Notes: generated from the sequence alone by a model not told the origin. A stretch of DNA of 56,042 nucleotides from Polyangiales bacterium (GCA_046351555.1 JAXLYI010000029.1:109727-165768); one strand, 5' to 3'. Numbered from the stretch's first letter, positions 7,678-54,135 are shown. Numbers and translations: made by a program.

Positions 7678-9015
7678 ATGAAGCGGGCTTGGGTTCTGTT
7701 GCTTGCGGCGGGGTGCGCCAACACGGTCAGCGGGACGGGGAGCGCCGCAACGCCGACGACCAACCTCGACGTGACGGTGATCCTCTGGGCCCGCACGCCG
7801 GGGGCGCCGGGCGTCGGCGTGCCCGCCGTGGCCGAGGCGGACGACGGCACCTTCGCGTTCGGCGCCACCGACGCGAGCGGCCACCTTCGGATCAACCTCG
7901 ACCCGGCCCGTCGCTACGCCGTCACGCTGGTTCCGTCGGGCTACGTGCCCGTGTCGCTGCTGGGGGTCGCGGTCCCGTTTCGAACGACGGTGCGGCTCCA
8001 ACCCGTGGAGACGGGCCTCCGCCCCGCGGACGCGACGGTGTTCTCGCGGCGGGTCGACTACGCGGGCCGCCGCGCGCCGGCCAACCGCGTCGCGGTGGAG
8101 GGCGGCTTCAGCCACTTGATGAACGCGCCGAGCGGCAACGACTTCGTGGTGGAGGACTGGCCCAACGCGCCAGGGCTCGCGCTCTCGGCGATCGAGTTCG
8201 ACGGGGCCGGCGGGCTGCCGATCCGTGCGTACCGCCTCGGCAACACGCCGCGCCGCACGAGCGAGGCGCTGTCGGTGGACTTCTCCGGGCCGACGCTGCC
8301 GGCGATGACCGGGGCGAGCGTGCTGGAGTTTCCCGTGGTGGGGCAGGTGAGCAACACGATGTCCGTGGTGCCGCGGCGCGCGCTGGTGTTCCAGCGGAAG
8401 TACACCGCGACGGGCGACCGGCCGGCGACGGTGGGCGCCGCGCAGCTCGAGCCCCCGACGCCCGGGCGCGCCGCGCGGATGATCGTCACGTCGTTCGAAG
8501 GCGAGCTCCGCCCCGAGCGCGTGGTGGCGACCTTCCGCGTCGACCCGCTCACCCCGCGCGACCCCACGCGCGAGGTGGCCTTCGCCACGCGCCCGCCCTT
8601 CGCCGGCCTCGCCATCGCCCTCCCCCCGGTGCAAGACCTCCGCGTCGAGAACACCACCGCCGCCACCACCCAGGGGCTCGCATGGCAATACCCGCCCCGC
8701 CTCCACGCCGACACGCGCGGGTGGCACCGGGCGGCCTTCGCGGTGTTCGTTGGCGACTCCCTGCGCTGGGAGGGCTTCGCCGTCGACGCCGCGCCGTGGG
8801 TCGGCCTCCCCCTCCCCTCCCGCTTCCCCGTGCCGCTCACGGGCGCGCCGCGCGTGTCCTCTTCGCTCCACGCGTGTCTCCTGCGCGACGACCCCACCGC
8901 CACCGAACCGCCCTGGGCCCAGGCGCCCCTCATCGACGAAGCGGGCGCGGCGTCGCTCGGCCGCTCGCTCCTCCGCGTCTGCGCGATCGGCACCGACCGC
9001 CCGCCCAGCGGTTGA
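7678..9015 (+). CDS. hypothetical lipoprotein
   Basis: Lipoprotein signal MKRAWVLLLAAGCAN; coding-like composition; no recognised domain. Confidence 0.55.
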   Translation: MKRAWVLLLAAGCANTVSGTGSAATPTTNLDVTVILWARTPGAPGVGVPAVAEADDGTFAFGATDASGHLRINLDPARRYAVTLVPSGYVPVSLLGVAVPFRTTVRLQPVETGLRPADATVFSRRVDYAGRRAPANRVAVEGGFSHLMNAPSGNDFVVEDWPNAPGLALSAIEFDGAGGLPIRAYRLGNTPRRTSEALSVDFSGPTLPAMTGASVLEFPVVGQVSNTMSVVPRRALVFQRKYTATGDRPATVGAAQLEPPTPGRAARMIVTSFEGELRPERVVATFRVDPLTPRDPTREVAFATRPPFAGLAIALPPVQDLRVENTTAATTQGLAWQYPPRLHADTRGWHRAAFAVFVGDSLRWEGFAVDAAPWVGLPLPSRFPVPLTGAPRVSSSLHACLLRDDPTATEPPWAQAPLIDEAGAASLGRSLLRVCAIGTDRPPSG

Positions 9016-9050
9016 CGCGCGCGCCCCCCGGAGCGCAGGCTCCGCGCGTC

Positions 9051-10247
9051 ATGACCCGCGCCACGCTCCTCGCCGCGCTCGCCCTCGCGGCGTGCTCGCC
9101 CAACACCGTCGGCCCCGGCAGCAACGCCACCGTCGACGGCGCCACGCCCGACGGCGCGCTCCCCGACGCCGGAACGCCTGACGGCCTCACGGTCGACGTG
9201 CTCACCAGCGACGGCGCGGTCCCCTCCGACGCGACGGTCACCAACGACCTGCCGAGCACCACCGACGTCCCGACCACCACCGATGTCCCGATGACCACGG
9301 ACGCGCCCGCGGCGTCGCTGCGCGGGATGTGGCGCGCGGTTCGCTACGAGTTCACCAGCGAGGGGCGTTCGTACACGCTCACCGACCGCGACACGCCCAT
9401 CGACCAGGGCACCGGCGTGTCGACGCCCTTCCGCGTCAACGGGCTCCTCTACCTCGACCCCACGCACTTCGCGATCACCTTCGGCACGCTCGCGATGGGC
9501 TACTTCTACACGTACACCCCGATGGTGACCGGCGACCTCGGCTACACCGCCGCGGGCTACGGCGTGCCCGGCGTGCTCGACGACGCGCGCGGGGAGTTCG
9601 CGATCACGGGCTCGCCCACGCCGACGCGCTTCGCCCGCAACGCCGACGGCTCCATCTCCTTCGTCGACCCGACCTCCGGCGCCCGCACCACCTACGCGCG
9701 CACCAGCACCCCGGGCCCCGCCCTCGCCTCCATCAACGCCGCGGGCCTCGCGGTGGTCGCGGAGGGCTTCACCCCCGCCGCCACGCACCCGCGCGTCGCG
9801 CTCCTCTGGGACCTCCGCGGCGACGCGCGCTGGCTCGAGACCAACGGCACCGCGGTGCGCTTCGCCACGCGCTTCGCGACCTTCCCGCTCACGCTCACCG
9901 CCGCGCCGACGGAGGCCGTCACCGCGTGGATGGGCAGCCAGGTGGCCGTCGCGCGCATCGTCGCGTACGAGGACGCCAACAACAACCTCGCCTACGACCG
10001 CGGCGCCGACCCGCTGCTCGGGCTCTCGCCGGTCGCGATCACCTGGCGCGCGGCCGCGGACTTCGCGCCGTCGGGCGCCGGGCACTTCCCGCTCCGCCAC
10101 GTGCCCGACGGCCTGCGCTACGGCCACGCGCACCCCGACTACGCGCTCGGCCGCGAGGACGTCGTCTCCTTCGACCACGCCGTCCCCGTCTCGCCCGGCG
10201 TCCCGATCCAGCGCATGCCGCCGGGCGGCCTCCCCGAGATCCTCTGA
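9051..10247 (+). CDS. hypothetical lipoprotein
   Basis: Signal MTRATLLAALALAACSPN; T/D/P-rich linker followed by a globular region. Confidence 0.55.
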   Translation: MTRATLLAALALAACSPNTVGPGSNATVDGATPDGALPDAGTPDGLTVDVLTSDGAVPSDATVTNDLPSTTDVPTTTDVPMTTDAPAASLRGMWRAVRYEFTSEGRSYTLTDRDTPIDQGTGVSTPFRVNGLLYLDPTHFAITFGTLAMGYFYTYTPMVTGDLGYTAAGYGVPGVLDDARGEFAITGSPTPTRFARNADGSISFVDPTSGARTTYARTSTPGPALASINAAGLAVVAEGFTPAATHPRVALLWDLRGDARWLETNGTAVRFATRFATFPLTLTAAPTEAVTAWMGSQVAVARIVAYEDANNNLAYDRGADPLLGLSPVAITWRAAADFAPSGAGHFPLRHVPDGLRYGHAHPDYALGREDVVSFDHAVPVSPGVPIQRMPPGGLPEIL

Positions 10248-10851: not shown

Positions 10852-11094
10852 GCGCCGTCGCCCAGGGTTCGCCCGCCTGCCCTCGCTGAGTGGTTTAGGC
10901 TCCCCCTGGGCTTCGAGCATGGGATCATCCGCCCGGTGGCGGATTCCGGGAGCAGGCGGGAATCGCGGGCGTCGCACGTCGCCCTCGTCGCCTCGTTGGG
11001 AGCCCGGTACCGACCGGGCGATCCCATGCTCGAAGCCCAGGGGGAGCCTAAACCACTCAGCGAGGGCAGGCGGGCGAACCCTGGGCGACGGCGC
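10852..11094. repeat. family-A palindromic hairpin element, copy 1 (perfect ~75-bp inverted arms + ~93-nt structured loop)
   Basis: Left arm 10852-10926 is the exact reverse complement of right arm 11020-11094 (core cgcccagggttcgcccgcctgccctcgctgagtggtttaggctccccctgggcttcgagcatgggatc). Confidence 0.85.
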
Positions 11095-12796: not shown

Positions 12797-12845
12797 TCAA
12801 AACGTGTGGCTCCAGCGGCTGCCGGCGATCACGTTGCCGACGCCA
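12797..12845. repeat. duplicated copy of the last ~45 nt plus stop codon of phoD, placed on the far side of family-A copy 2
   Basis: tcaaaacgtgtggctccagcggctgccggcgatcacgttgcc here, versus tcagaacgtgtggctccagcggctcccggcgatgacgttgcc at 13117-13165. Confidence 0.75.
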
Positions 12846-13081
12846 CCGCCCAGGGTTCGCCCGCCTGCCCTCGCTGAGTGGTTTAGGCTCACCCTGGGCT
12901 TCGAGCACGGGAGCGCCCGGTCGGTACCGGGCTCACGACGAGGCAACGAGGGCGACGCGCGATGCCAGCAATTCGCGCCGGCTCCCGGAGTCCGCCACCG
13001 GGCGGACGATCCCATGCTCGAAGCCCAGGGTGAGCCTAAACCACTCAGCGAGGGCAGGCGGGCGAACCCTGGGCGGTGGCG
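12841..13081. repeat. family-A palindromic hairpin element, copy 2 (inverted relative to copy 1)
   Basis: Arms and loop are the reverse complement of copy 1. The arm substitutions (cccc->cacc, gtcg->accg) are mirrored in both arms, so the self-complementarity is preserved. Confidence 0.85.
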
Positions 13082-13122
13082 CGGGCGACGGCGTATTCTG
13101 GGCGGCGCATTCAACGCGCGCG

Positions 13123-14746
13123 TCAGAACGTGTGGCTCCAGCGGCTCCCGGCGATGACGTTGCCGGCGCCGTTGACGAACTCCGCGCGCAGCGTGCGGGT
13201 GGCGGGGTCGGCGCGGAGCACGGTGTAGTTGTGCGTGCCGATCACCGAGACGGGCCACTGGCCGTCGCGCAGGGGCGGGCGGCCGTCGCGGTCGGCGCCG
13301 GCGGGGCCCATGATCACCTCCCAGATGTCGGCGAAGGGGCCGGTCGGCTCCACCTTGCAGACGCCGCCGAAGTGGACGTCGCCCGAGAGCCACACCACGC
13401 CGCGGAGGCGGTTGCTGTCGATGTGGCGGAGGATCTCCTGGCGCTGCGAGGCGTAGCCGTTCCAGTTGTCGGCGTCGGCGCCCGCGCGGTCGACGATGGG
13501 CACCGAGTTGACGATGAACTTGAACACGCACGGCGACGCGCGGAGGCCCGCCTTGAGCCAGTCCATCTGCGCGCGGGAGATGTACTGCGAGCGGCGCGCG
13601 ACGTTGGTCGAGCGCGTCGACGGGAGCCGCTCGCTGCGGCAGTCGAGCACGAAGATCTCCGCGGTGCGCCCCCAGCGGAAGCTCCGCCAGATGCGCTCGG
13701 GCGCGGCCGCGTTGCGTCGCGTGGCGCGGTGCTCGAAGAAGGCCTGGCGCGCGGCGGCGAGGCGCGCGGCGCTCAGGGTCTCGGGGTCCCAGTTGTTGAG
13801 CACCTCGTGGTCGTCCCAGGTGAGGTACATCCCCGTCGAGCGGTGGAGCGCGCGGAGGCCCGCCGACGTCCAGTTCTGCTCGTACTTCGCGCGGTACTGG
13901 GCGAGCGTCGCCGCGTTGTCGGCGTAGTCCGTGTAGACGTGGTCGCCGGCGTGGATGAAGAAGTCGAGGTCGTCGCGGCCGCCGGCGTGCTGGAGCGCGG
14001 GGAAGGGCCGGTGCCGCTGGTTGGTGCACGACGTCCCGCCGAACACGAGCGGCACGAGCGCGTCGGGCGCGGGGGCGGTCTGCACGCGGCCGACGAGGCT
14101 CCGCCCGGTGGGGGCGCCCGCGGGGCCGACGAGGAAGGCGTAGAGGTGCTGCTTGTTGGCGCGCAGCCCGTTGACCACCGCGCGCACGTAGCCCGCGGAC
14201 GACGCGTCGACCGCGCCGTCGAAGCGGACCGCGGCGATGCGCGCGCCGTTCATCTCCAGCACGCGGAGGCGGACGGCGCCGGTGCCGGCGTAGCGCGTCC
14301 AGAAGATCACCGACGTGTCGGTCGCGTCGCCCGCCATCACCCCGAGCGGAAACTGCGCCGCACGCTCGGGCAGCGAGCGGAAGTCGGGGTCGGCCACCAT
14401 CCCCGCGTCGCGCGCCACGTCGGGGCGGGCGGCGTCGACCCGCGCCACGTCGGGCGCCGCGTCGAGGCGAACCACGTCAGGCGCAGCGTCGGCGCGCGCG
14501 TCGAGGGAAGCGTCGCGGGCTGCGTCCAGCGCGGCGTCGGGCGCAGCGTCTTCCGCAGGCGCGGCATCCACTGCAGCGTCGTCACCCGCGTCGTCGCCCG
14601 CGTCGGGGTCGATCGGCATCGCGTCGTAGGTGGGGTCGGGCCCGGCGTCCTCGATCGGGTCGGGCGTGTACACCTCCTCGTCGGCGCAGGCCACAGCGCA
14701 CACGGCCCCCGCGAGCTGAACGAACCGTCGTCGGGTGAGCTTCATC
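13123..14746 (-). CDS. phoD: alkaline phosphatase D family (PhoD), Tat-secreted
   Basis: Twin-arginine signal MKLTRRRFVQLAGAVCAVA. Metallophosphatase motifs GDHVYTD, TWDDHEV, SGDVHFGG. Confidence 0.85.
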
Positions 14747-14828
14747 GCCCTCAAGCTCCTAACACACCGGGCGCGCCGTCGATCGCGCGGCCGCCGCGGA
14801 AAGCGCCGTGATAGCCTCCGCGCCACCA

Positions 14829-15098
14829 ATGGCCCGCATCACCTGGGACGACGGCGGCGAGGCGACCCTCGGCCCCGTCCACGACGTCACCGTCACCCTC
14901 GTCGACTCCACCCGCGCCTATCCCCCGGGCGCGCCGGTGCGCGGCACGCTCCACGGCGCGTCCGACGTTGCCTTCACGCTCAAGGTCGCGGGTTCGAAGC
15001 GTGAGGGCGAGGGCTTCACCGTCCGTGGCAAATTGGTGAGCGCCACCACCGCCGTGCGCGACGCCTTCCACGCGCTCAGCGCGCCACCCCCAGCCTGA
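14829..15098 (+). CDS. small hypothetical protein; its 3' end is duplicated after the adjacent repeat
   Basis: ORF MARITWDDGGEATLGPVHDVTVTLVD...GKLVSATTAVRDAFHALSAPPPA, divergent from phoD. The last ~22 codons recur at 15403-15487. Confidence 0.35.
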   Translation: MARITWDDGGEATLGPVHDVTVTLVDSTRAYPPGAPVRGTLHGASDVAFTLKVAGSKREGEGFTVRGKLVSATTAVRDAFHALSAPPPA

Positions 15099-15142
15099 AC
15101 TTCCGCTGGCTGCCTTGCGACCATGCGCCCCGGGCCCGTCGA

Positions 15143-15391
15143 GCCTCCATCCCCGCTCGCTTCGCTCGCGCGTTTCCCCTTCCTCCGCCGCAGGAAGCGG
15201 CAGAGGAAGGGCATCAGGCTCGCCGCGGACGTGCGTGGCTCGGGCGTCCCTCGTCGCGACGTCGCGTTCATGCGTGGGCGTCATCGTCGCGTCGGTGCCG
15301 AGGCGTATTCGGTGCCGCAACCCCCTTCCTCTGCCGCTTCCTGCGGCGGAGGAAGGGGAAACGCGCGAGCGAAGCGAGCGGGGATGGAGGC
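15143..15391. repeat. family-B palindromic hairpin element, copy 1 (~68-bp arms, ~108-nt loop)
   Basis: Arm gcctccatccccgctcgcttcgctcgcgcgtttccccttcctccgccgcaggaagcggcagaggaaggg is mirrored at 15321-15391. Flanked by ~100-115 bp direct repeats (14996-15110 and 15390-15487). Confidence 0.85.
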
Positions 15392-15557
15392 TCGAAGCCC
15401 GCGGCAAATTGGTGAGCGCCACCACCGCCGTGCGCGACGCCTTCCACGCGCTCGGCGCGCCACCCCCAGCCTGAACTTCCGCTGGCCGCCGCCCGCCCAA
15501 CGCATGGCCGCGGCTGGCCACCCGCGCATCGTGCGCCCCGGGTCACCATGGCGGCCC

Positions 15558-27361: not shown

Positions 27362-27433
27362 GGTGCGGTAGCCAAGAGGCCAGGCCACGGTTTGCAAAAC
27401 CGTTATACGTGGGTTCAAATCCCATCCGCACCT
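27362..27433 (+). tRNA. tRNA-Cys (anticodon GCA)
   Basis: Acceptor stem GGTGCGG/CCGCACC. Anticodon stem ACGGT/ACCGT with loop TTGCAAA. T-arm GTGGG-TTCAAAT-CCCAT. Discriminator T; CCA not encoded. Confidence 0.75.
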
Positions 27434-27508
27434 CCCCTCCGTTCCCCTTGCTGCACGATGGCGTCCCGAGACGCCCGCAGCGTGGGGTGAGCGCCCGTCC
27501 CCACGACC

Positions 27509-30538: not shown

Positions 30539-30567
30539 AGGGGGCGAATCGGTGGCGAGGCGCCGCG

Positions 30568-31560
30568 TCAGCGCGCGTCGGGGTCGGCAAGCCAGACAGC
30601 GAGGGCGTCGGGGGCGAAGTCGAGCACGACGTCGCCGAGGCGGACGGGGCCGACGGTGCGGAGGCGCTCGGCGATCGTCGCGCGCTCGCCGTCGGAGAGG
30701 GCGCGGCCGAGGCGGCGCTCGAACTGGTGCGTGATTGGGAGGAGACCCTGCGAGAGGCCCTGCGAGAGGCCCTGCGAGAGGCCCTGCGAGAGGCCCTCGT
30801 CGCGGGCCCGTGCCTGGTCCCGTTCGTATGCTGCCTGCACGGCGTTCATGAATTCCTCGTCCTCCTCGGTGCGCGTGGGCTGCTGGGCGATGTAGCTACG
30901 CCATTGTACCAGAACGTCCAGGAGCCTGTGCTCCCAGGCATCGGGCGGCAGTCGGCGCAGGGCTTCGACGGCACGCCGGAAGATCTCGCCGCGACCGAGT
31001 AACCGGCAGGCGAGCGTCTCCGGCGTCTCCGGCAGCTCCGCGGCGACCACCACCCACAGCCCGAGCTCGTCGTGGGTGCGGAACACCCCCGGCGGATGCC
31101 CCTCCGCTGCGCCGCACGCGAACACCTCCAGCGCCCCCTCGGGCCGCCCCGGCGAGATCACGATCGCGCGGGGCATCGGCGTCGACTTCGGTGGGTCGTC
31201 GCGCCGCCCCTCCAGCTCTCGCACGTGGTGCTGGACCCAGAGGCGCCGGACGCAACCGCGCACCGCCGGGACGGGCGGCGTGTTGCGGAAGGGCTCGAGG
31301 TGGCACTCGCGCGCGTCCACCAGCGCGCCGAGCAGGCCGCGCTGCAACCGAGCGGCGTGGTGCGCCGCGTCGGGCCGGAAGAGCACGTCGACCCGCTGCG
31401 TCGCAGCCCCACTCTCCACCCCGCGCTCCACCGTCCCCACGTCGCGCAGCGCCGTGACCAGCAGGTCCTTCCCCAAGGCGTCGTGTCGCTCGCGCATGGC
31501 CGCGCGGTCGTCACACGGTACGCGGGACGGCGCAAGGTGGACGTCGAACGCGGTGGACAT
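30568..31560 (-). CDS. Rpn/YhgA-like putative PD-(D/E)XK nuclease (Transposase_31-like), paralog 1, with 4x GLSQ tandem repeat
   Basis: N-terminal HDALGKDLL resembles the Rpn-family HDALFK box. C-terminus resembles DUF4351. Near-identical to the 34858..35814 copy. Confidence 0.55.
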   Translation of the reverse strand: MSTAFDVHLAPSRVPCDDRAAMRERHDALGKDLLVTALRDVGTVERGVESGAATQRVDVLFRPDAAHHAARLQRGLLGALVDARECHLEPFRNTPPVPAVRGCVRRLWVQHHVRELEGRRDDPPKSTPMPRAIVISPGRPEGALEVFACGAAEGHPPGVFRTHDELGLWVVVAAELPETPETLACRLLGRGEIFRRAVEALRRLPPDAWEHRLLDVLVQWRSYIAQQPTRTEEDEEFMNAVQAAYERDQARARDEGLSQGLSQGLSQGLSQGLLPITHQFERRLGRALSDGERATIAERLRTVGPVRLGDVVLDFAPDALAVWLADPDAR

Positions 31561-31624
31561 TGCGTGACCGCGCCGGGCGGTGTGAGGGTTCGCAGCCTCG
31601 CCTGCGACCGACGCGCGAGCCCCG

Positions 31625-32566
31625 CTACGGCGCGGCGGCCGGGGCGTGCGCGTCGATCCAGCGCTCGAGGTCGGCGGCCACCTGCTCGCGCTCGGGCTCG
31701 TGGAGGAGGTCGTGCCGCAGGCCGCGGTAGAGCAGCAGCGTGTGGTCGGCGTGGCGCGCGCGGCGAGCGAGCTCCGCGGTGCCGCGCGGGTCGGTGAGGC
31801 GGTCGTCGGTGCCGTGCGCCCCGAGGAGCGGCACGTCGAGCGTGTCAGCCCGCGCCCAGATGCGCTCGATGGCGGCGGTGATGGTGGCGGCCGTCCGCGC
31901 GGGCGCCGGGTCGTGGAAGATGAGCGGGTCGTCGGCCATCGCGCGCACCGCGTCGGGCGCGCGGTAGAAATCCGCGTCGGGCGTGTCGAGCAGTCCCGCG
32001 TTGGGCGTGAGGATCGCCGCCACCGGCGTGGCCGCGGCCTCGATGGGCGAGCGGTCGACGCGGAGCGCGGGGGCCAGCAGCACGAGGCCCGCGAGCGAAG
32101 GGCGGCGCTCCAGCGTGAAGAGCGTCACCGCCGCGCCCCCCGCGCTGTGCCCGAGCAGGAACACCGGCCGCCCCGGCTCCCGCGCCCGCACCCGGTCGAG
32201 GAAGGTGCCGAGGTCGTCGAGCAGCGCGTCGACGCGGTCGAGCGTCGCCCGCTGCCCCGCCGAGCGCCCATGCCCGCGCATGTCGTAGGCGTACACCGCG
32301 AGGCCGCGCGCGACGAGCCGCGCCGCGAAGGGCGCGTAGTGGTCGCTGTGGCTCTTGAGCCCGTGGTGGATCACCACCACCGCCCGCGGCGTCCCCGCGG
32401 GGTGCCACGACTGTTCGAAGAGCGCGACGCCGTCGGCGCCGGTGAAGCTCCCGTGGCGGTGCGAGGCGTCGTCCGCGGCCGTGGCCGGCGGGCGGAGCGC
32501 GAGCGTCGGCGGCCCCCCGCACGCAGTGAGTGAGAGCGCCGCGGAGAGTACGACGTGGAGCTTCAT
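31625..32566 (-). CDS. alpha/beta-hydrolase lipoprotein (lysophospholipase / monoacylglycerol-lipase-like)
   Basis: Signal MKLHVVLSAALSLTACG. HG box VVIHHGLKSH. Nucleophile GHSAGG. Late GAHGTDD...H. Confidence 0.75.
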   Translation of the reverse strand: MKLHVVLSAALSLTACGGPPTLALRPPATAADDASHRHGSFTGADGVALFEQSWHPAGTPRAVVVIHHGLKSHSDHYAPFAARLVARGLAVYAYDMRGHGRSAGQRATLDRVDALLDDLGTFLDRVRAREPGRPVFLLGHSAGGAAVTLFTLERRPSLAGLVLLAPALRVDRSPIEAAATPVAAILTPNAGLLDTPDADFYRAPDAVRAMADDPLIFHDPAPARTAATITAAIERIWARADTLDVPLLGAHGTDDRLTDPRGTAELARRARHADHTLLLYRGLRHDLLHEPEREQVAADLERWIDAHAPAAAP

Positions 32567-33267
32567 CGCGCCCCCGTGAGGTCGAGGCCCAGCACCACGC
32601 CCACCGCGCGGGCGCCCATGAACTCCCGGTACACCACGCCGAGCGACGGCCCCGCCCCCGCGCTGGTGCTCGACCAGTACTGGTGCTGCTTGCCGAGTCG
32701 CAGGGAGATCCCGGCCTCGGCCTCGTCGGCGAAGGGGAGCGTCGTCGACCCGTCGCGCCGTCGGTCGTCGCCGAGCACCCACGCGGCGTGGGCCCAGGCG
32801 AGGAGGCGGACGGGCCCGAGCTGCTGCGTCACGCTGAACTCGACGGGGAAGCGCCCCGCGAAGGGGACGGCGTCGCCCACGGCCCCGAGGCCCGCGCCGC
32901 CGGTGAGGCAGAGCGCGTTGCCGCGGCCCCAGCGAACGCCGCCGCCGAGGAGGTACGCGGTGACCCCGTAGGCGAAGCCCGCGTCGGCGCCGCCGACCTC
33001 GCCGTCGAGCCCGCCGCACCACGCGGCCGTCCGCCCGACGAGCGCGCGCGTGCGGAGCGAGAAGGCCCCGGCGTTGGCGAACGCGCCCGCGCGCCCCGAC
33101 TCCACGACGCGCGTGTAGCCGAGGCGGAGCGAGACGTCGAGGTGGTGCGGGAGCTCGCCGCGGAGCTCGTCGGGGCGCGCGTACTCGGCGCGCTGCGCGG
33201 CGGCGACGGACGGCGCGGCGAGGGCCGCCAGCGCGAGCGCGCAGCCGGTGAGGGAGGTGGTGGACAT
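32563..33267 (-). CDS. secreted Gly-rich protein, possibly a small beta-barrel
   Basis: Signal MSTTSLTGCALALAALAAPSVAAA. Stop overlaps the downstream hydrolase start (ATGA). Confidence 0.5.
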   Translation of the reverse strand: MSTTSLTGCALALAALAAPSVAAAQRAEYARPDELRGELPHHLDVSLRLGYTRVVESGRAGAFANAGAFSLRTRALVGRTAAWCGGLDGEVGGADAGFAYGVTAYLLGGGVRWGRGNALCLTGGAGLGAVGDAVPFAGRFPVEFSVTQQLGPVRLLAWAHAAWVLGDDRRRDGSTTLPFADEAEAGISLRLGKQHQYWSSTSAGAGPSLGVVYREFMGARAVGVVLGLDLTGAR

Positions 33268-33384
33268 GCGGGACCCCGGTGGGTGCGGAGGAGGCGCGGA
33301 CGATCGCACCGGCGCGGGGCCGCGGGCAACGGGGGAGTTGGGCAAGTCGAAGAGAGCGCGCTGGATGCGGCGAGCGCGCCTGGG

Positions 33385-34788
33385 CTACCGGCAGAAGCCC
33401 CACATGCACGTGAGCCCGGCGCCGCAACGGCCCACGAGGCAGCAGATCTGGCCGCGGCTGCCGCAGTTGCAGTTCCCCATCACACACGCGCCGCTCGCTG
33501 CGCAGGCCCGGCCGCAGGCGCCGCAGTGGGCGTCGTCGGAGGCGGTGTTCACGCAGCGCCCGCCGCAGACCGTCTGGCCCGAGGGGCACCGGCATGTCCC
33601 ACCCACGCACGACGCACCCGTGGGGCACGCAGTGCCGCAACTGCCGCAGTTGGCGACGTCGGTCATCAGGTTGGTGCAGCCGGCGCCGCACACCGACTGG
33701 CCCGTTGGGCACTGGCAGCCGCTCGAGACGCAGGTCTGGCCCGTGCCGCAGACGCGCCCGCACGACCCACAGTTGCGCGGGTCGCTCGTCGGGTCGACGC
33801 AGGCGCCGGCGCAGGTGATCCGCGGTGAGTAGCACGAGGCCGCCGTCGCACAGTCCCCAGACACGCACGCGCGCCCCGACGGGCACGTTCCCCCACAGCG
33901 CCCACAATGGGCCTGCGTGCTGAGGAGCGGCACCTCGCAGCCGTTGGCCTCGGTCGCGTCGCAGTCGCCATAGTTCGTCGCGCACGCGAAGCCGCACGCG
34001 CCTGCCTGGCAGGTGGGCGTGGCGTTGGCGCGCGCCTGACACGCCACCCCGCAGCCGCCGCAGTGCATGAGGGCGGTGGCGGTGTTCACCTCGCAGCCGT
34101 TGGCCTCCATCGCGTCGCAGTCGGCGAAGCCCGTGGCGCACGCCGGCCGGCACTCCGCCGCGACGCAGGCGGGCGTGCTGTTGGGGCGCGCGGCACAGGC
34201 GCGGCCGCACATGCCGCAGTGGGAGGCGCTGGTGGTGGTGTCGACCTCGCAGCCGTTGGCCGCGTTGCCGTCGCAGTCCGCGGCGCCCGCCTGGCAGACG
34301 CAGCGGCCGAAGGTGCACGACTGCCCGTCGGCGCACTGCTGGCCGCAGCCGCCGCAGTGCTGGGGGTCGATCTGCGTGTCGGCGCAGAGCTCACCGCATC
34401 GCGTGCGGCCCGCCGGACACACGATGTCCGCCGCGTCGTCGCCCGCGTCCGCCGCGCCGTCGCCCGTGTCCGCCGCGTCGTCGCGGGCGTCACCCGCGTC
34501 GACTTCGTCCGGGGCGTCCGCGGCAGCATCGTCGTCGGCGACGTCCCCGTCCGCTGCGTCGCCGTCGTCCGTCGCGCCCGCGTCCTCGTCGAGCACATCG
34601 TCGCCCGTCGCGGCCTCTTCGTCCGCCGCGTCGAGGCCGCCGTCCGCGTCGCCGCCGTCCGCATCGGCGACGACCTCCGGCCCCCACCCCGCGTCGCCGC
34701 TCGACGCCGGCCACCGCAGCGAGCAGCCGGCGAGCACGACGAACACCAGCGCCCACCGCCCCCACGCCCGCGACGCCGCGACATCCAT
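33385..34788 (-). CDS. secreted Cys-rich repeat lipoprotein (paralog of 21665..23500 family)
   Basis: Signal WALVFVVLAGCS. Acidic D/A-rich linker. More than 8 repeats of CxxxxxDxxNCGxCGxxC. Confidence 0.65.
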   Translation of the reverse strand: MDVAASRAWGRWALVFVVLAGCSLRWPASSGDAGWGPEVVADADGGDADGGLDAADEEAATGDDVLDEDAGATDDGDAADGDVADDDAAADAPDEVDAGDARDDAADTGDGAADAGDDAADIVCPAGRTRCGELCADTQIDPQHCGGCGQQCADGQSCTFGRCVCQAGAADCDGNAANGCEVDTTTSASHCGMCGRACAARPNSTPACVAAECRPACATGFADCDAMEANGCEVNTATALMHCGGCGVACQARANATPTCQAGACGFACATNYGDCDATEANGCEVPLLSTQAHCGRCGGTCPSGRACVSGDCATAASCYSPRITCAGACVDPTSDPRNCGSCGRVCGTGQTCVSSGCQCPTGQSVCGAGCTNLMTDVANCGSCGTACPTGASCVGGTCRCPSGQTVCGGRCVNTASDDAHCGACGRACAASGACVMGNCNCGSRGQICCLVGRCGAGLTCMWGFCR

Positions 34789-34857
34789 CGCGGCGGATCA
34801 CAGCGCAGCGCCCCTGCGCCGTCAAGCGCGCGGAGCGGCGGCGGGGCGGAGGCGTCG

Positions 34858-35814
34858 TCAGCGCGCGGCGGGGTCGGCGAGCCAGGCGGCGAGGGCGTCG
34901 GAGGCGAGGTCGAGCACGACGTCGCCGAGGCGGACGGGGCCGACGGTGCGGAGGCGCTCGGCGATCGTCGCGCGCTCGCCGTCGGAGAGGGCGCGCCCGA
35001 GGCGGCGCTCGAACTGGTGCGTGAGTGGGAGGAGGCCCTGCGAGAGGCCCTCGTTGCGGGCCCGTGCCTGGTCTCGTTCGTATGCTGCCTGCACGGCGTT
35101 CATGAATTCCTCATCCTCCTCGGTGCGCGTGGGCTGCTGGGCGATGTAGCTGCGCCATTGTACCAGAACGTCCAGGAGCCTGTGCTCCCAGGCATCGGGG
35201 GGCAGGCGCCGCAGGGCTTCGACGGCACGCCGGAAGGTCTCACCGCGGCCGAGGAGCCGGCAGGCGAGCGTCTCCGGCGTCTCCGGCAGCTCCGCGGCGA
35301 CCACCACCCACAGCCCGAGTTCGTCGTGGGTGCGGAACACCCCCGGCGGATGCCCCTCCGCTGCGCCGCACGCGAACACCTCCAGCGCCCCCTCGGGCCG
35401 CCCCGGTGAGATCACGATCGCGCGGGGCATCGGCGACGACTTCGGTGGGTCGTCGCGCCGCCCCTCCAGCTCCCGCACGTGGTGCTGGACCCAGAGGCGT
35501 CGCACGCAGCCGCGCACCGCCGGGACGGGGGGCGTGTTGCGGAAGGGCTCGAGGTGGCACTCGCGCGCGTCCACCAGCGCGCCGAGCAGGCCGCGCTGCA
35601 ACCGAGCGGCGTGGTGCGCCGCGTCGGGCCGGAAGAGCACGTCGACCCGCTGCGTCGTCGCCCCGCTCTCCACCCCGCGCTCCACCGTCCCCACGTCGCG
35701 CAGCGCCGTGACCAGCAGGTCCTTCCCCAAGGCGTCGTGTCGCTCGCGCATGGCCGCGCGGTCGTCACACGGTGCGCGGGACGGCGCAAGGCGGACGTCG
35801 AACGCGGTGGACAT
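34858..35814 (-). CDS. Rpn/YhgA-like putative nuclease, paralog 2 (1x GLSQ)
   Basis: Differs from paralog 1 at roughly ten residues plus the GLSQ copy number. Confidence 0.55.
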   Translation of the reverse strand: MSTAFDVRLAPSRAPCDDRAAMRERHDALGKDLLVTALRDVGTVERGVESGATTQRVDVLFRPDAAHHAARLQRGLLGALVDARECHLEPFRNTPPVPAVRGCVRRLWVQHHVRELEGRRDDPPKSSPMPRAIVISPGRPEGALEVFACGAAEGHPPGVFRTHDELGLWVVVAAELPETPETLACRLLGRGETFRRAVEALRRLPPDAWEHRLLDVLVQWRSYIAQQPTRTEEDEEFMNAVQAAYERDQARARNEGLSQGLLPLTHQFERRLGRALSDGERATIAERLRTVGPVRLGDVVLDLASDALAAWLADPAAR

Positions 35815-35912
35815 TGCGTGACCGCGCGAGGTTAGGCGCCGGCGGGGCCGCCCCGACTCTGCCCTCTCAGCGGACGATCACCCCGCCTGCGCCCTCGGCG
35901 CCGCGCGCTTCA

Positions 35913-42753: not shown

Positions 42754-42853
42754 GCGGAGGGGGCGCAGGGTAGCGCGCCGGAGGCCCGCGGGTGAATGGG
42801 GTGCCGCAGCCCAGCGCCCACAGCCCGCTGCCCGCAGTCCGCCGCCCGCTGCT

Positions 42854-42896
42854 GGCGCCACTCCCCTCTCCAGCACGCGCTTCGGGTAACCCGCCG
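42854..42896 (-). promoter_or_regulatory. copy 1 of the recurrent ~40-nt motif (…GCGTGCTGGAGAGGGGAGTGGCGCC), minus orientation, ~100-120 bp upstream of the exonuclease start
   Basis: Reverse complement is cggcgggttacccgaagcgcgtgctggagaggggagtggcgcc. Confidence 0.5.
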
Positions 42897-42964
42897 TGAG
42901 GCTCGGCGAACGGCGGGGCCGTCGCTCGCCCACGGTCCACGACGGTTGCGGTAGTCTCCTCGTC

Positions 42965-53725: not shown

Positions 53726-53826
53726 CGTCAGCGCGCGGCAGCGTGCAGCACCCCCCCGGCGGGCGCAAGGGCGGCGGTGGCCCCGCTGGGATTCGGAGCA
53801 GGTTCTGTTTCGCGGTGTGGTCGCGC

Positions 53827-54080
53827 TCGCCTCGCCTCCATCCCCGCTCGCCGAGCCTCGCGCGTTTCCCCTTCCTCCGCCGCAGGAAGCGGCAGAGGAA
53901 GGGCGCTGTTTCGTCTCAGACGCTCCGCTCTCGCGCGCTCCGGGCAACGCGTACTACGAACGTCGACGACTCCGAGCCCGCGCGTGCTGTAGATGTTCTA
54001 GAGGCCCTTCCTCTGCCGCTTCCTGCGGCGGAGGAAGGGGAAACGCGCGAGGCTCGGCGAGCGGGGATGGAGGCGAGGCG
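53827..54080. repeat. family-B palindromic hairpin element, copy 2 (perfect 77-bp arms, unrelated ~100-nt AT-richer loop)
   Basis: 53827-53903 is the exact reverse complement of 54004-54080. The arm differs from copy 1 (gccgagcctcg versus gcttcgctcg) with the mirrored change in the opposite arm. Confidence 0.85.
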
Positions 54081-54135
54081 AGCGGGCCCGCACCGCGAGA
54101 CAAAACCTACTCCGAACCCCCACGGCGGCGAGCCG

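Follow-up and report, generated by a model that had tools for sequence, protein, structure and literature searches.

Two near-identical genes of about 1 kb, here called copies A and B, lie as direct repeats in a 56,042-nt stretch of DNA from a Polyangiales bacterium (GCA_046351555.1, JAXLYI010000029.1:109727-165768). This whole stretch, hereafter the window, has a GC content of 75.5%, and positions are counted from its first nucleotide. An earlier note, made from the sequence alone, had described the two genes as Rpn/YhgA-like nuclease paralogs flanking a block of three secreted-protein genes. In the present study, we characterize the copies, the protein family to which they belong, and the genes between them, and we weigh how far they resemble the Rpn (recombination-promoting nuclease) toxin-antitoxin genes of Escherichia coli.

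Results

Two direct copies of one gene

As first read, the open reading frames (ORFs) of copies A (30568-31560, 330 amino acids [aa]) and B (34858-35814, 318 aa) both lie on the minus strand. Their proteins share 307 of 330 positions in BLASTP, with 11 substitutions and one 12-aa gap. At the DNA level, the identity is ~96.4%; 33 of 318 aligned codons differ, and 34 nucleotide positions differ besides a 36-nt indel. The indel amounts to three units of a tandem repeat with a 12-nt period; GLSQ is encoded four times in A and once in B. These comparisons bear out the earlier description of two near-identical minus-strand genes, with roughly ten residue differences and a fourfold versus single GLSQ. 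The similarity extends from 2-4 nt beyond the stop codon to 13 nt upstream of the first-read ATG and drops sharply at both ends, beyond which the flanks are unrelated. Within the window, tblastn and blastn found copies A and B only; since they are the sole blastn matches, their likeness is not due to chance. The longest identical runs, read off the DNA alignment, are ~127 nt, and the differences are scattered evenly along the gene, with no obvious blocks of older or newer sequence.

Both genes probably start at the second Met (M22), that is, at the ATG at 31497 in A and at 35751 in B. Most aligned homologues begin at this residue, and the NCBI protein U0324_34975 (297 aa), from a Polyangiales metagenome-assembled genome (MAG), is identical to copy B from the second Met onward. 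The 21 codons ahead of it hold 2 nonsynonymous and 0 synonymous differences between A and B. A start at the second Met means that the repeat unit carries ~76 nt of upstream leader; the similarity was earlier said to cover the ORF plus ~15 bp, of which the sharp limits hold and the short leader does not. The assignment for copy A draws on the M22 start in the homologue alignment, on hidden Markov model (HMM) matches of the N- and C-domains, and on the conserved D37 and E68. The features of the two copies are as follows:

30566-31573, minus strand: repeat unit A, the whole stretch similar to B, comprising the gene and its ~76-nt leader (MAFFT, blastn)
34856-35827, minus strand: repeat unit B (MAFFT, blastn alignment)
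30568-31497, minus strand: copy A, probable full-length protein of 309 aa, RpnL-like, with a PD-(D/E)XK N-domain, a repeat helix, and a helical C-terminal module (C-module)
34858-35751, minus strand: copy B, probable full-length protein of 297 aa, equal to NCBI U0324_34975
30742-30797, no strand assigned: 12-nt tandem array of 4.7 copies encoding the GLSQ repeats (Tandem Repeats Finder, alignment gap); one unit in B
30847-30867, minus strand: copy A, internal start signal, GAGGAGGACGAGGAATTC then ATG (30847-30849), read from the sequence
35101-35121, minus strand: copy B, internal start signal, GAGGAGGATGAGGAATTC then ATG (35101-35103), read from the sequence
30568-30849, minus strand: copy A, putative intragenic small protein of 93 aa, RpnS-like, with four GLSQ units
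34858-35103, minus strand: copy B, putative intragenic small protein of 81 aa, with one GLSQ unit

A nuclease fold in a large family

An AlphaFold2 model built on 40 homologues reached a predicted local distance difference test score (pLDDT) of 91 and gave the N-domain a PD-(D/E)XK fold of the restriction-endonuclease type. Residues D6, K10, D37, and E68 show little or no variation in alignments of 40, 20, and 130 sequences; in the model, they fall on helix 1, strand 2, and strand 3. The substitutions between A and B spare all of the conserved, putatively catalytic positions. A profile search of 1.84 billion representatives, clustered at 50% identity, returned 1,916 clusters with this N-domain at E<=1e-3 and 540 at E<=1e-30, nearly all of ~300 aa.

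Existing libraries did not name this family. Neither copy matched Pfam even at E<=10, nor any Rpn model or other relevant NCBIfam entry at E<=0.01. The 40 aligned members matched no Rpn or other nuclease family in Pfam at E<=0.1, and the N-domain of the 130 wider relatives had no Pfam match at all. A sequence-profile search of the PDB gave chance-level matches only, and Foldseek with the full model against the PDB gave nothing meaningful (E>0.9). PADLOC matched neither copy; this result is uninformative, as the E. coli RpnA control was also blank (PADLOC holds no Rpn model).

An internal start signature conserved across the family

Each rpn gene of E. coli has two products, the toxic PD-(D/E)XK endonuclease RpnL and the small C-terminal antitoxin RpnS, which is made from an internal start (Zhong 2023, PMC10400941). 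Both window copies have an in-frame ATG (at 30849 in A and 35103 in B) preceded by GAGGAGGAC(T)GAGGAATTC. In 33 of 34 distinct genes of the family, drawn from the retrieved loci, GGAG or GAGG lies 4-12 nt upstream of an in-frame ATG or GTG that is within a few codons of the aligned column of the copies. The same Shine-Dalgarno (SD)-like motif and start occur in 7.8% of control windows of those genes (nominal binomial P ~7e-36, the sequences being mutually related). Moreover, GGAG/GAGG at a spacing of 5-8 nt is kept where the encoded residues differ (EEDEEF-M, TEGP-M, GGIE-M, and GDQS-M), and hence the SD-like motif is not simply a protein motif. A sequence signature of the RpnS type is therefore present, from which translation of a small protein may be predicted by analogy. 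In copy B, the segment for this small protein was modeled by AlphaFold2 as all-helical, with a pLDDT of 75.

Tetrapeptide repeats and the C-module

In the putative small protein, the GLSQ units begin at residue 19; in the model, they lie inside a 41-residue helix (H211-251). Tetrapeptide repeats of the G-h-x-x type occur in variable number throughout the family, e.g., GISQ, GMQQ, GRNE, KGIE, and EGRS. In Rpn proteins, the tetrapeptide repeats lie 8 to 20 residues after the internal Met, in the first helix, and RpnC-L is blocked solely by an RpnS of equal repeat number (PMC10400941).

The C-module of the window copies has the motif FERRLGRxL...RLGDVVLDL...AAWLADPxAR and no Pfam match. For DUF4351 (PF14261) in particular, neither copy matched, and 1 of 40 family members did so at E 0.05. 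A true DUF4351 nevertheless replaces the C-module in 18 of 130 relatives of the N-domain (best E 8e-21), where it likewise sits C-terminally, behind the same repeat helix; in P0042 and P0046, it scores above the Pfam threshold. The window module differs from it in its own strongly conserved RLGDVVLDL...AAWLADPxAR motif. Domains of the RpnS/DUF4351 type are three-helix bundles (PDB 7TH0). When compared by hhalign with the C-termini of members lacking it, the window C-module aligned over its full length with 69% probability (E 4e-5). Stand-alone RpnS genes carry the DUF4351 annotation (PMC10400941).

In other proteins, the window-type C-module is joined to a different N-domain, namely a true PF04754 YhgA/Rpn domain in P0056 and Uma2 nucleases of Myxococcota in P0058, P0060, and P0067. 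Uma2 (PF05685) shares the PD-(D/E)XK fold with the window proteins, whereas its N-domain comes from an unrelated sequence family; Uma2 genes adjoin family members in L088 and L094. As a side observation, this 62-aa module follows tetrapeptide repeats behind at least four types of N-domain (the window family, Uma2, YhgA/PF04754, and unannotated). In P0056, P0058, P0060, P0067, P0081, and P0087, it appears, judging by its behavior, to be shuffled among myxobacterial nucleases.

Comparison with the E. coli Rpn proteins

The nearest counterparts among known systems are RpnA-E and the plasmid-encoded RpnP2 (COG5464, PF04754 Transposase_31, TIGR01784). The window family shares with these proteins a length of ~300 aa, a PD-(D/E)XK N-domain with an N-terminal HDAxxK helix and a D...E core, and an internal SD and Met before a helical C-terminal domain. 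Variable tetrapeptide repeats, hydrophobic plus polar/Gly, lie in both within a long helix 8-20 residues past that Met. Both also have a faster-evolving C-terminal part, lack inverted repeats and target duplications, and occur in multiple copies with a patchy distribution and arrays from direct duplication. The N-terminal RHDALGKDLL resembles PHDALFKLFL of RpnA. The catalytic residues of RpnA are D11, D63, E82, and Q84 (Kingston 2017, PMC5350276); D6, D37, and E68 of the family parallel the first three by pattern, the alignment itself not being significant.

Selection on the two copies

Overall dN/dS (the ratio of nonsynonymous to synonymous divergence) between A and B is 0.16-0.19, with dS ~0.09-0.10. 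This low value indicates that both copies have been kept functional by purifying selection since they diverged. The nuclease N-domain has a dN/dS of 0.08 (17 synonymous and 4 nonsynonymous changes), and the putative small-protein region 0.43 (5 synonymous and 6 nonsynonymous changes). A less constrained small-protein region fits the fast-evolving C-terminal domains of Rpn.

Distribution and recurring pairs

Among species-representative genomes, a scan found 80 loci, every one of them in Myxococcota, with ~6-11 loci per genome in five MAGs (e.g., JACRDB01, CAYUSB01, and CAISKJ01). In relatives, the paralogues of a genome are many, mostly solitary, and set in unrelated contexts, which largely speaks against the positional association with cassettes that had been suggested earlier. 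In L001 (7132-13547; also in L002 and L003), a member with 64% identity stands between a UvrD-helicase/PDDEXK_1 gene and the HsdM-HsdS genes of a type I restriction-modification system.

We surveyed the fetched loci for pairs by HMM search and self-blastn. The copies of the window pair are separated by 3.3 kb. Same-strand pairs were likewise found in L017 (98.8% identity, ~1 kb apart), L022 (93.4%, 3.6 kb apart, with an XisH gene and a tetratricopeptide repeat [TPR] lipoprotein between), and L035 (95.6%, ~3.7 kb apart). Nearby second copies also occur in L020, L024, L045, and L081, and in all of these loci the two copies share a strand. Different genes lie between the copies in each case, and so independent local duplications are likelier than one ancient arrangement.

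A comparable geometry is found for PDDEXK_2 (PF12784, "PD-(D/E)XK nuclease family transposase", assigned by NCBI to the Rpn family). In L021, two 91%-identical PDDEXK_2 genes (8745-9903 and 13983-15129) are arranged as direct repeats with 4.1 kb between them and enclose a member of the window family, a gene similar to formylglycine-generating enzyme (FGE)-sulfatase, and a second protein with a window-type C-module. PDDEXK_2 nucleases are of similar size to the window proteins but belong to another sequence family, which the window proteins do not match.

Genes between the copies

The earlier note had placed a hydrolase lipoprotein, a secreted-protein gene joined to it by ATGA, and a Cys-rich lipoprotein between the copies, and the coordinates and families confirm this content:

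31619-33349, minus strand: conserved two-gene operon block (blastn of L094-L100 against the window; 96% in other samples, 82% in a related species)
31625-32566, minus strand: alpha/beta hydrolase lipoprotein with an LTAC lipobox (Pfam Hydrolase_4, E 5e-67), bystander
32563-33345, minus strand: 260-aa secreted protein of no known family, in ATGA overlap with the hydrolase, bystander
33385-34788, minus strand: Cys-rich MXAN_6577-like/Stig1 repeat lipoprotein with an LAGC lipobox (NCBIfam NF041328, E 1e-58; Pfam Stig1), bystander
L096 3011-3388 (also L097 and L098), convergent to the hydrolase: HipA_C-domain toxin gene

Five independent Logan assemblies encode a homologue of the 260-aa protein at 97%, and a related MAG encodes one at 79%; the homologues suggest that this protein starts ~26 codons further in. 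DNA homology between the operon and its relatives ends within a few bases of the operon ends, and both flanks are unrelated. In L096-L098, the convergent HipA_C gene lies 6-9 nt past the hydrolase stop in place of copy A, and an unrelated 248-aa gene stands upstream of the operon instead of the Cys-rich gene. L100, in contrast, matches the window for a further 32 nt, up to a contig end 14 nt short of the repeat; from these junctions, both haplotypes exist. In the 82% relative, the operon is neighbored by an unrelated 296-aa gene, a Uma2 nuclease, and a divergent Cys-rich gene, with no Rpn-like gene beside the operon.

As the operon is conserved while its flanks differ, it constitutes a resident unit, and the flanks are variable slots for accessory genes of the toxin or nuclease type; HipA-type and Uma2 genes fill such adjoining slots. 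The earlier view of the block as a cassette does not survive this comparison, the operon being native at 96% and 82% identity in relatives without a flanking Rpn-like gene. Nor do other copies bracket secreted-protein cassettes, as had been asked: the genes they enclose are unrelated and non-secreted. An association with secreted proteins was rejected on the pairs in L022 (XisH and the TPR lipoprotein) and L021 (the FGE-sulfatase-like gene and another nuclease gene). The block shows no clear foreign sign in composition (GC 0.73-0.78 versus 0.77-0.79 nearby). No promoter or terminator sites were found between 30.3 and 36.1 kb, as expected at 75% GC with promoters of non-sigma-70 consensus.

Near-identical direct repeats are in principle substrates for homologous recombination, and deletion, amplification, or conversion between the 1-kb repeats is plausible. 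No deletion or amplification variant was seen among the locus variants found, which differ from the predicted deletion product.

Several further observations concern these genes. The 260-aa protein has only 17 database relatives, which were recovered by the protein-database search; a metagenome scan with it found none. A 156-nt repeat is present in 2.3 copies within the Cys-rich gene (33931-34289), as internal Cys-rich domain repeats, and 21-nt repeats near the 5' end of this gene encode an Asp/Ala/Gly-rich low-complexity stretch (34426-34501). Upstream of the operon in L099, positions 188-278 give a short 87% match to window positions 42840-42931, which may be a small dispersed repeat.

Other elements in the window

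One tRNA gene was annotated near the copies:

27362-27435: tRNA-Cys (GCA), ~3 kb from copy A and just upstream of a sulfatase/HEAT-repeat gene

Allowing up to 3 mismatches, no second occurrence of the 3' 25-mer of this tRNA was found in the window. A tRNA-integrated island was rejected, with neither an integrase nor an att repeat of tRNA-Cys found. Four large hairpins lie at 10852-11094, 12832-13090, 15130-15404, and 53783-54125. Their arms measure 82-122 nt and are 89-95% complementary, and their loops span 51-111 nt. The first two are 91% related to each other and the last two ~76%. On a crude ORF map based on GC content at third codon positions, three of them fall between ORFs and the third overlaps an ORF start. 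Rfam gave nothing at any of the four, and they look like a family of miniature inverted-repeat transposable element (MITE)-like or large palindromic repeats.

Discussion

We consider it reasonably probable that copies A and B are two Rpn-like nuclease toxin genes with intragenic antitoxins, arisen by local direct duplication. The family shares the design of the Rpn toxin-antitoxin systems of E. coli and most likely works in the same manner. Each gene would then encode, by analogy, a full-length PD-(D/E)XK DNA endonuclease acting as the toxin and, from an internal ribosome-binding site and ATG, a small C-terminal protein (93 aa in A, 81 aa in B) that would bind and restrain the long form. The tetrapeptide repeats lie in the long helix that both products would have in common. 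Since neutralization in RpnC needs an equal repeat number, A with four GLSQ units and B with one would be mutually insulated and would constitute two separate systems. From this analogy we infer that the small protein is translated, that the long form is toxic and the small protein its antitoxin, that repeat number insulates the two systems, and that they have a role in defense. The pair itself would stem from a local, gene-sized direct duplication of a kind that recurs in the family and in Rpn genes generally, and the hydrolase operon and the Cys-rich gene between the copies would be unrelated residents.

Several observations weigh against this proposal. With hhalign, the family (40 or 130 sequences) matched an alignment of E. 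coli RpnA, RpnC, RpnE, and their relatives, which is narrow and confined to Enterobacteriaceae, with 52-53% probability and E ~1e-4 (1.3e-4 for 53%). The match was confined to the region after the core, GVY..ELPxTRxTLxLRLLG being aligned with the PDDE..HRRMALLEL region of Rpn; in one run, it continued collinearly through the internal Met. Neither the N-core nor the C-domain alone matched E. coli Rpn significantly in hhalign, and the PF04754, PF12784, and NCBIfam models fail to place the proteins in the Rpn family. The position corresponding to RpnA Q84, two residues after the glutamate, is aromatic (F/Y/W) rather than Q or K. In many members, the SD-like motif overlaps a conserved acidic patch, so that constraint on the protein could account for part of it. 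The regional contrast in dN/dS comes from small counts (Fisher p 0.056). Lastly, a clear defense neighborhood was seen at just one surveyed homologue locus, most others being housekeeping. Of the earlier Rpn/YhgA label, the Rpn-like architecture thus stands, whereas membership of the YhgA/Rpn Pfam or NCBIfam families was not detected; the window genes are Rpn-like in design and possibly remote homologues, not demonstrated members of PF04754.

Should the two genes be ordinary nuclease or DNA-repair paralogues with a single product, the internal Met and the purine stretch would be structural and the repeat difference neutral slippage. Such a view agrees with the acidic EE(D/E)EF patch that precedes the Met and is retained at the protein level in the closest relatives, with the proneness of 12-nt tandem repeats to slippage, and with the housekeeping contexts of most homologues. 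Against it, GGAG/GAGG at a 5-8 nt spacing is kept across TEGP-M, GGIE-M, and GDQS-M, the position is where Rpn genes are known to start internally, and DUF4351 also occurs in the form of stand-alone genes (PMC10400941). A patchy, multi-copy, strain-variable distribution is also atypical of housekeeping genes, and we rate the single-product explanation as improbable. A false duplication, produced by misjoining of strain variants in a metagenome contig, would seem conceivable given that the source is a MAG and that several pairs in relatives lie at contig ends (L017, L020, and L022). Yet the copies differ at 34 nucleotides and by the 36-nt indel and have unique flanks within the 56-kb window, the independent sample L100 tracks the junction from the hydrolase to copy A to within 14 nt of the repeat, and similar pairs occur inside long contigs (e.g., L021 and L035). 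Such an artifact is hardly credible.

The origin of the pair invites two other explanations. The copies could be old paralogues held similar by gene conversion, rather than products of a fairly recent duplication, with the limits of similarity marking the edges of ancestral homology. The exact end of similarity at the gene limits on both sides, the even spread of the differences, and identical runs of ~127 nt, which permit conversion, are compatible with this origin. However, 96%-identical populations have a HipA-type gene and no copy after the hydrolase, neither flank of the operon holds a copy in the 82% relative, and pairs elsewhere bracket different genes, which argues for repeated independent duplications. 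We regard conversion as unlikely, if somewhat less so than a single-product gene; it concerns origin alone and is compatible with the functional reading as nested toxin-antitoxin genes.

A composite transposon or insertion sequence (IS), in which direct transposase-related genes mobilize the three secreted-protein genes, would resemble the window in having two similar ~1-kb genes, here direct repeats, around a 3.3-kb block of other genes. The flanks of the hydrolase operon do vary between strains, and Rpn-type genes are frequently annotated as "putative transposase". We know of no autonomous transposase with a PD-(D/E)XK fold of this type, and the copies matched no transposase family in Pfam or NCBIfam. 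They are direct rather than inverted and lack terminal inverted repeats (5-6 of 40 positions complementary at the copy ends) and target-site duplications (the 20-nt flanks have nothing in common). The genes inside are native ones that are conserved elsewhere without the flanks; relatives keep just the two-gene operon, with neither flanking copies nor the Cys-rich gene. No integrase and no att-like repeat of the nearby tRNA-Cys were found. The Rpn literature likewise offers no evidence for transposition of rpn genes, which are without inverted repeats or target duplications and form arrays by direct duplication (PMC10400941). The transposase ancestry invoked earlier is misleading, and a transposon-like cassette is very improbable.

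For the mechanism that gives gene-only copies split by unique DNA, one speculative and rather doubtful idea is that Rpn-type genes copy themselves nearby as gene-sized units without transposon ends, perhaps through the break-and-repair activity of the nuclease itself, creating gene-only direct repeats around unrelated resident genes, as in the window, L017, L022, L035, and, for PDDEXK_2, L021. A new copy could then change the number of its tetrapeptide repeats and so come to act as a toxin-antitoxin pair in its own right.

For annotation, "hypothetical proteins" of this kind could be labeled Rpn-like nucleases with a probable nested gene, and the flanked hydrolase block is not to be taken for a mobile cassette. 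Adjacent near-identical copies differing in repeat number provide a natural pair for the question of repeat-based insulation. If the family is Rpn-like, the "antitoxin within a toxin" design extends to a large group of proteins (~1,900 clusters at 50% identity) that is unrecognized by current domain libraries or defense-system catalogues and that was confined to Myxococcota in our genome scan. Although its N- and C-domains are beyond the reach of the HMMs, the internal start and the repeat helix have been kept, which suggests that these two constitute the essential functional core.

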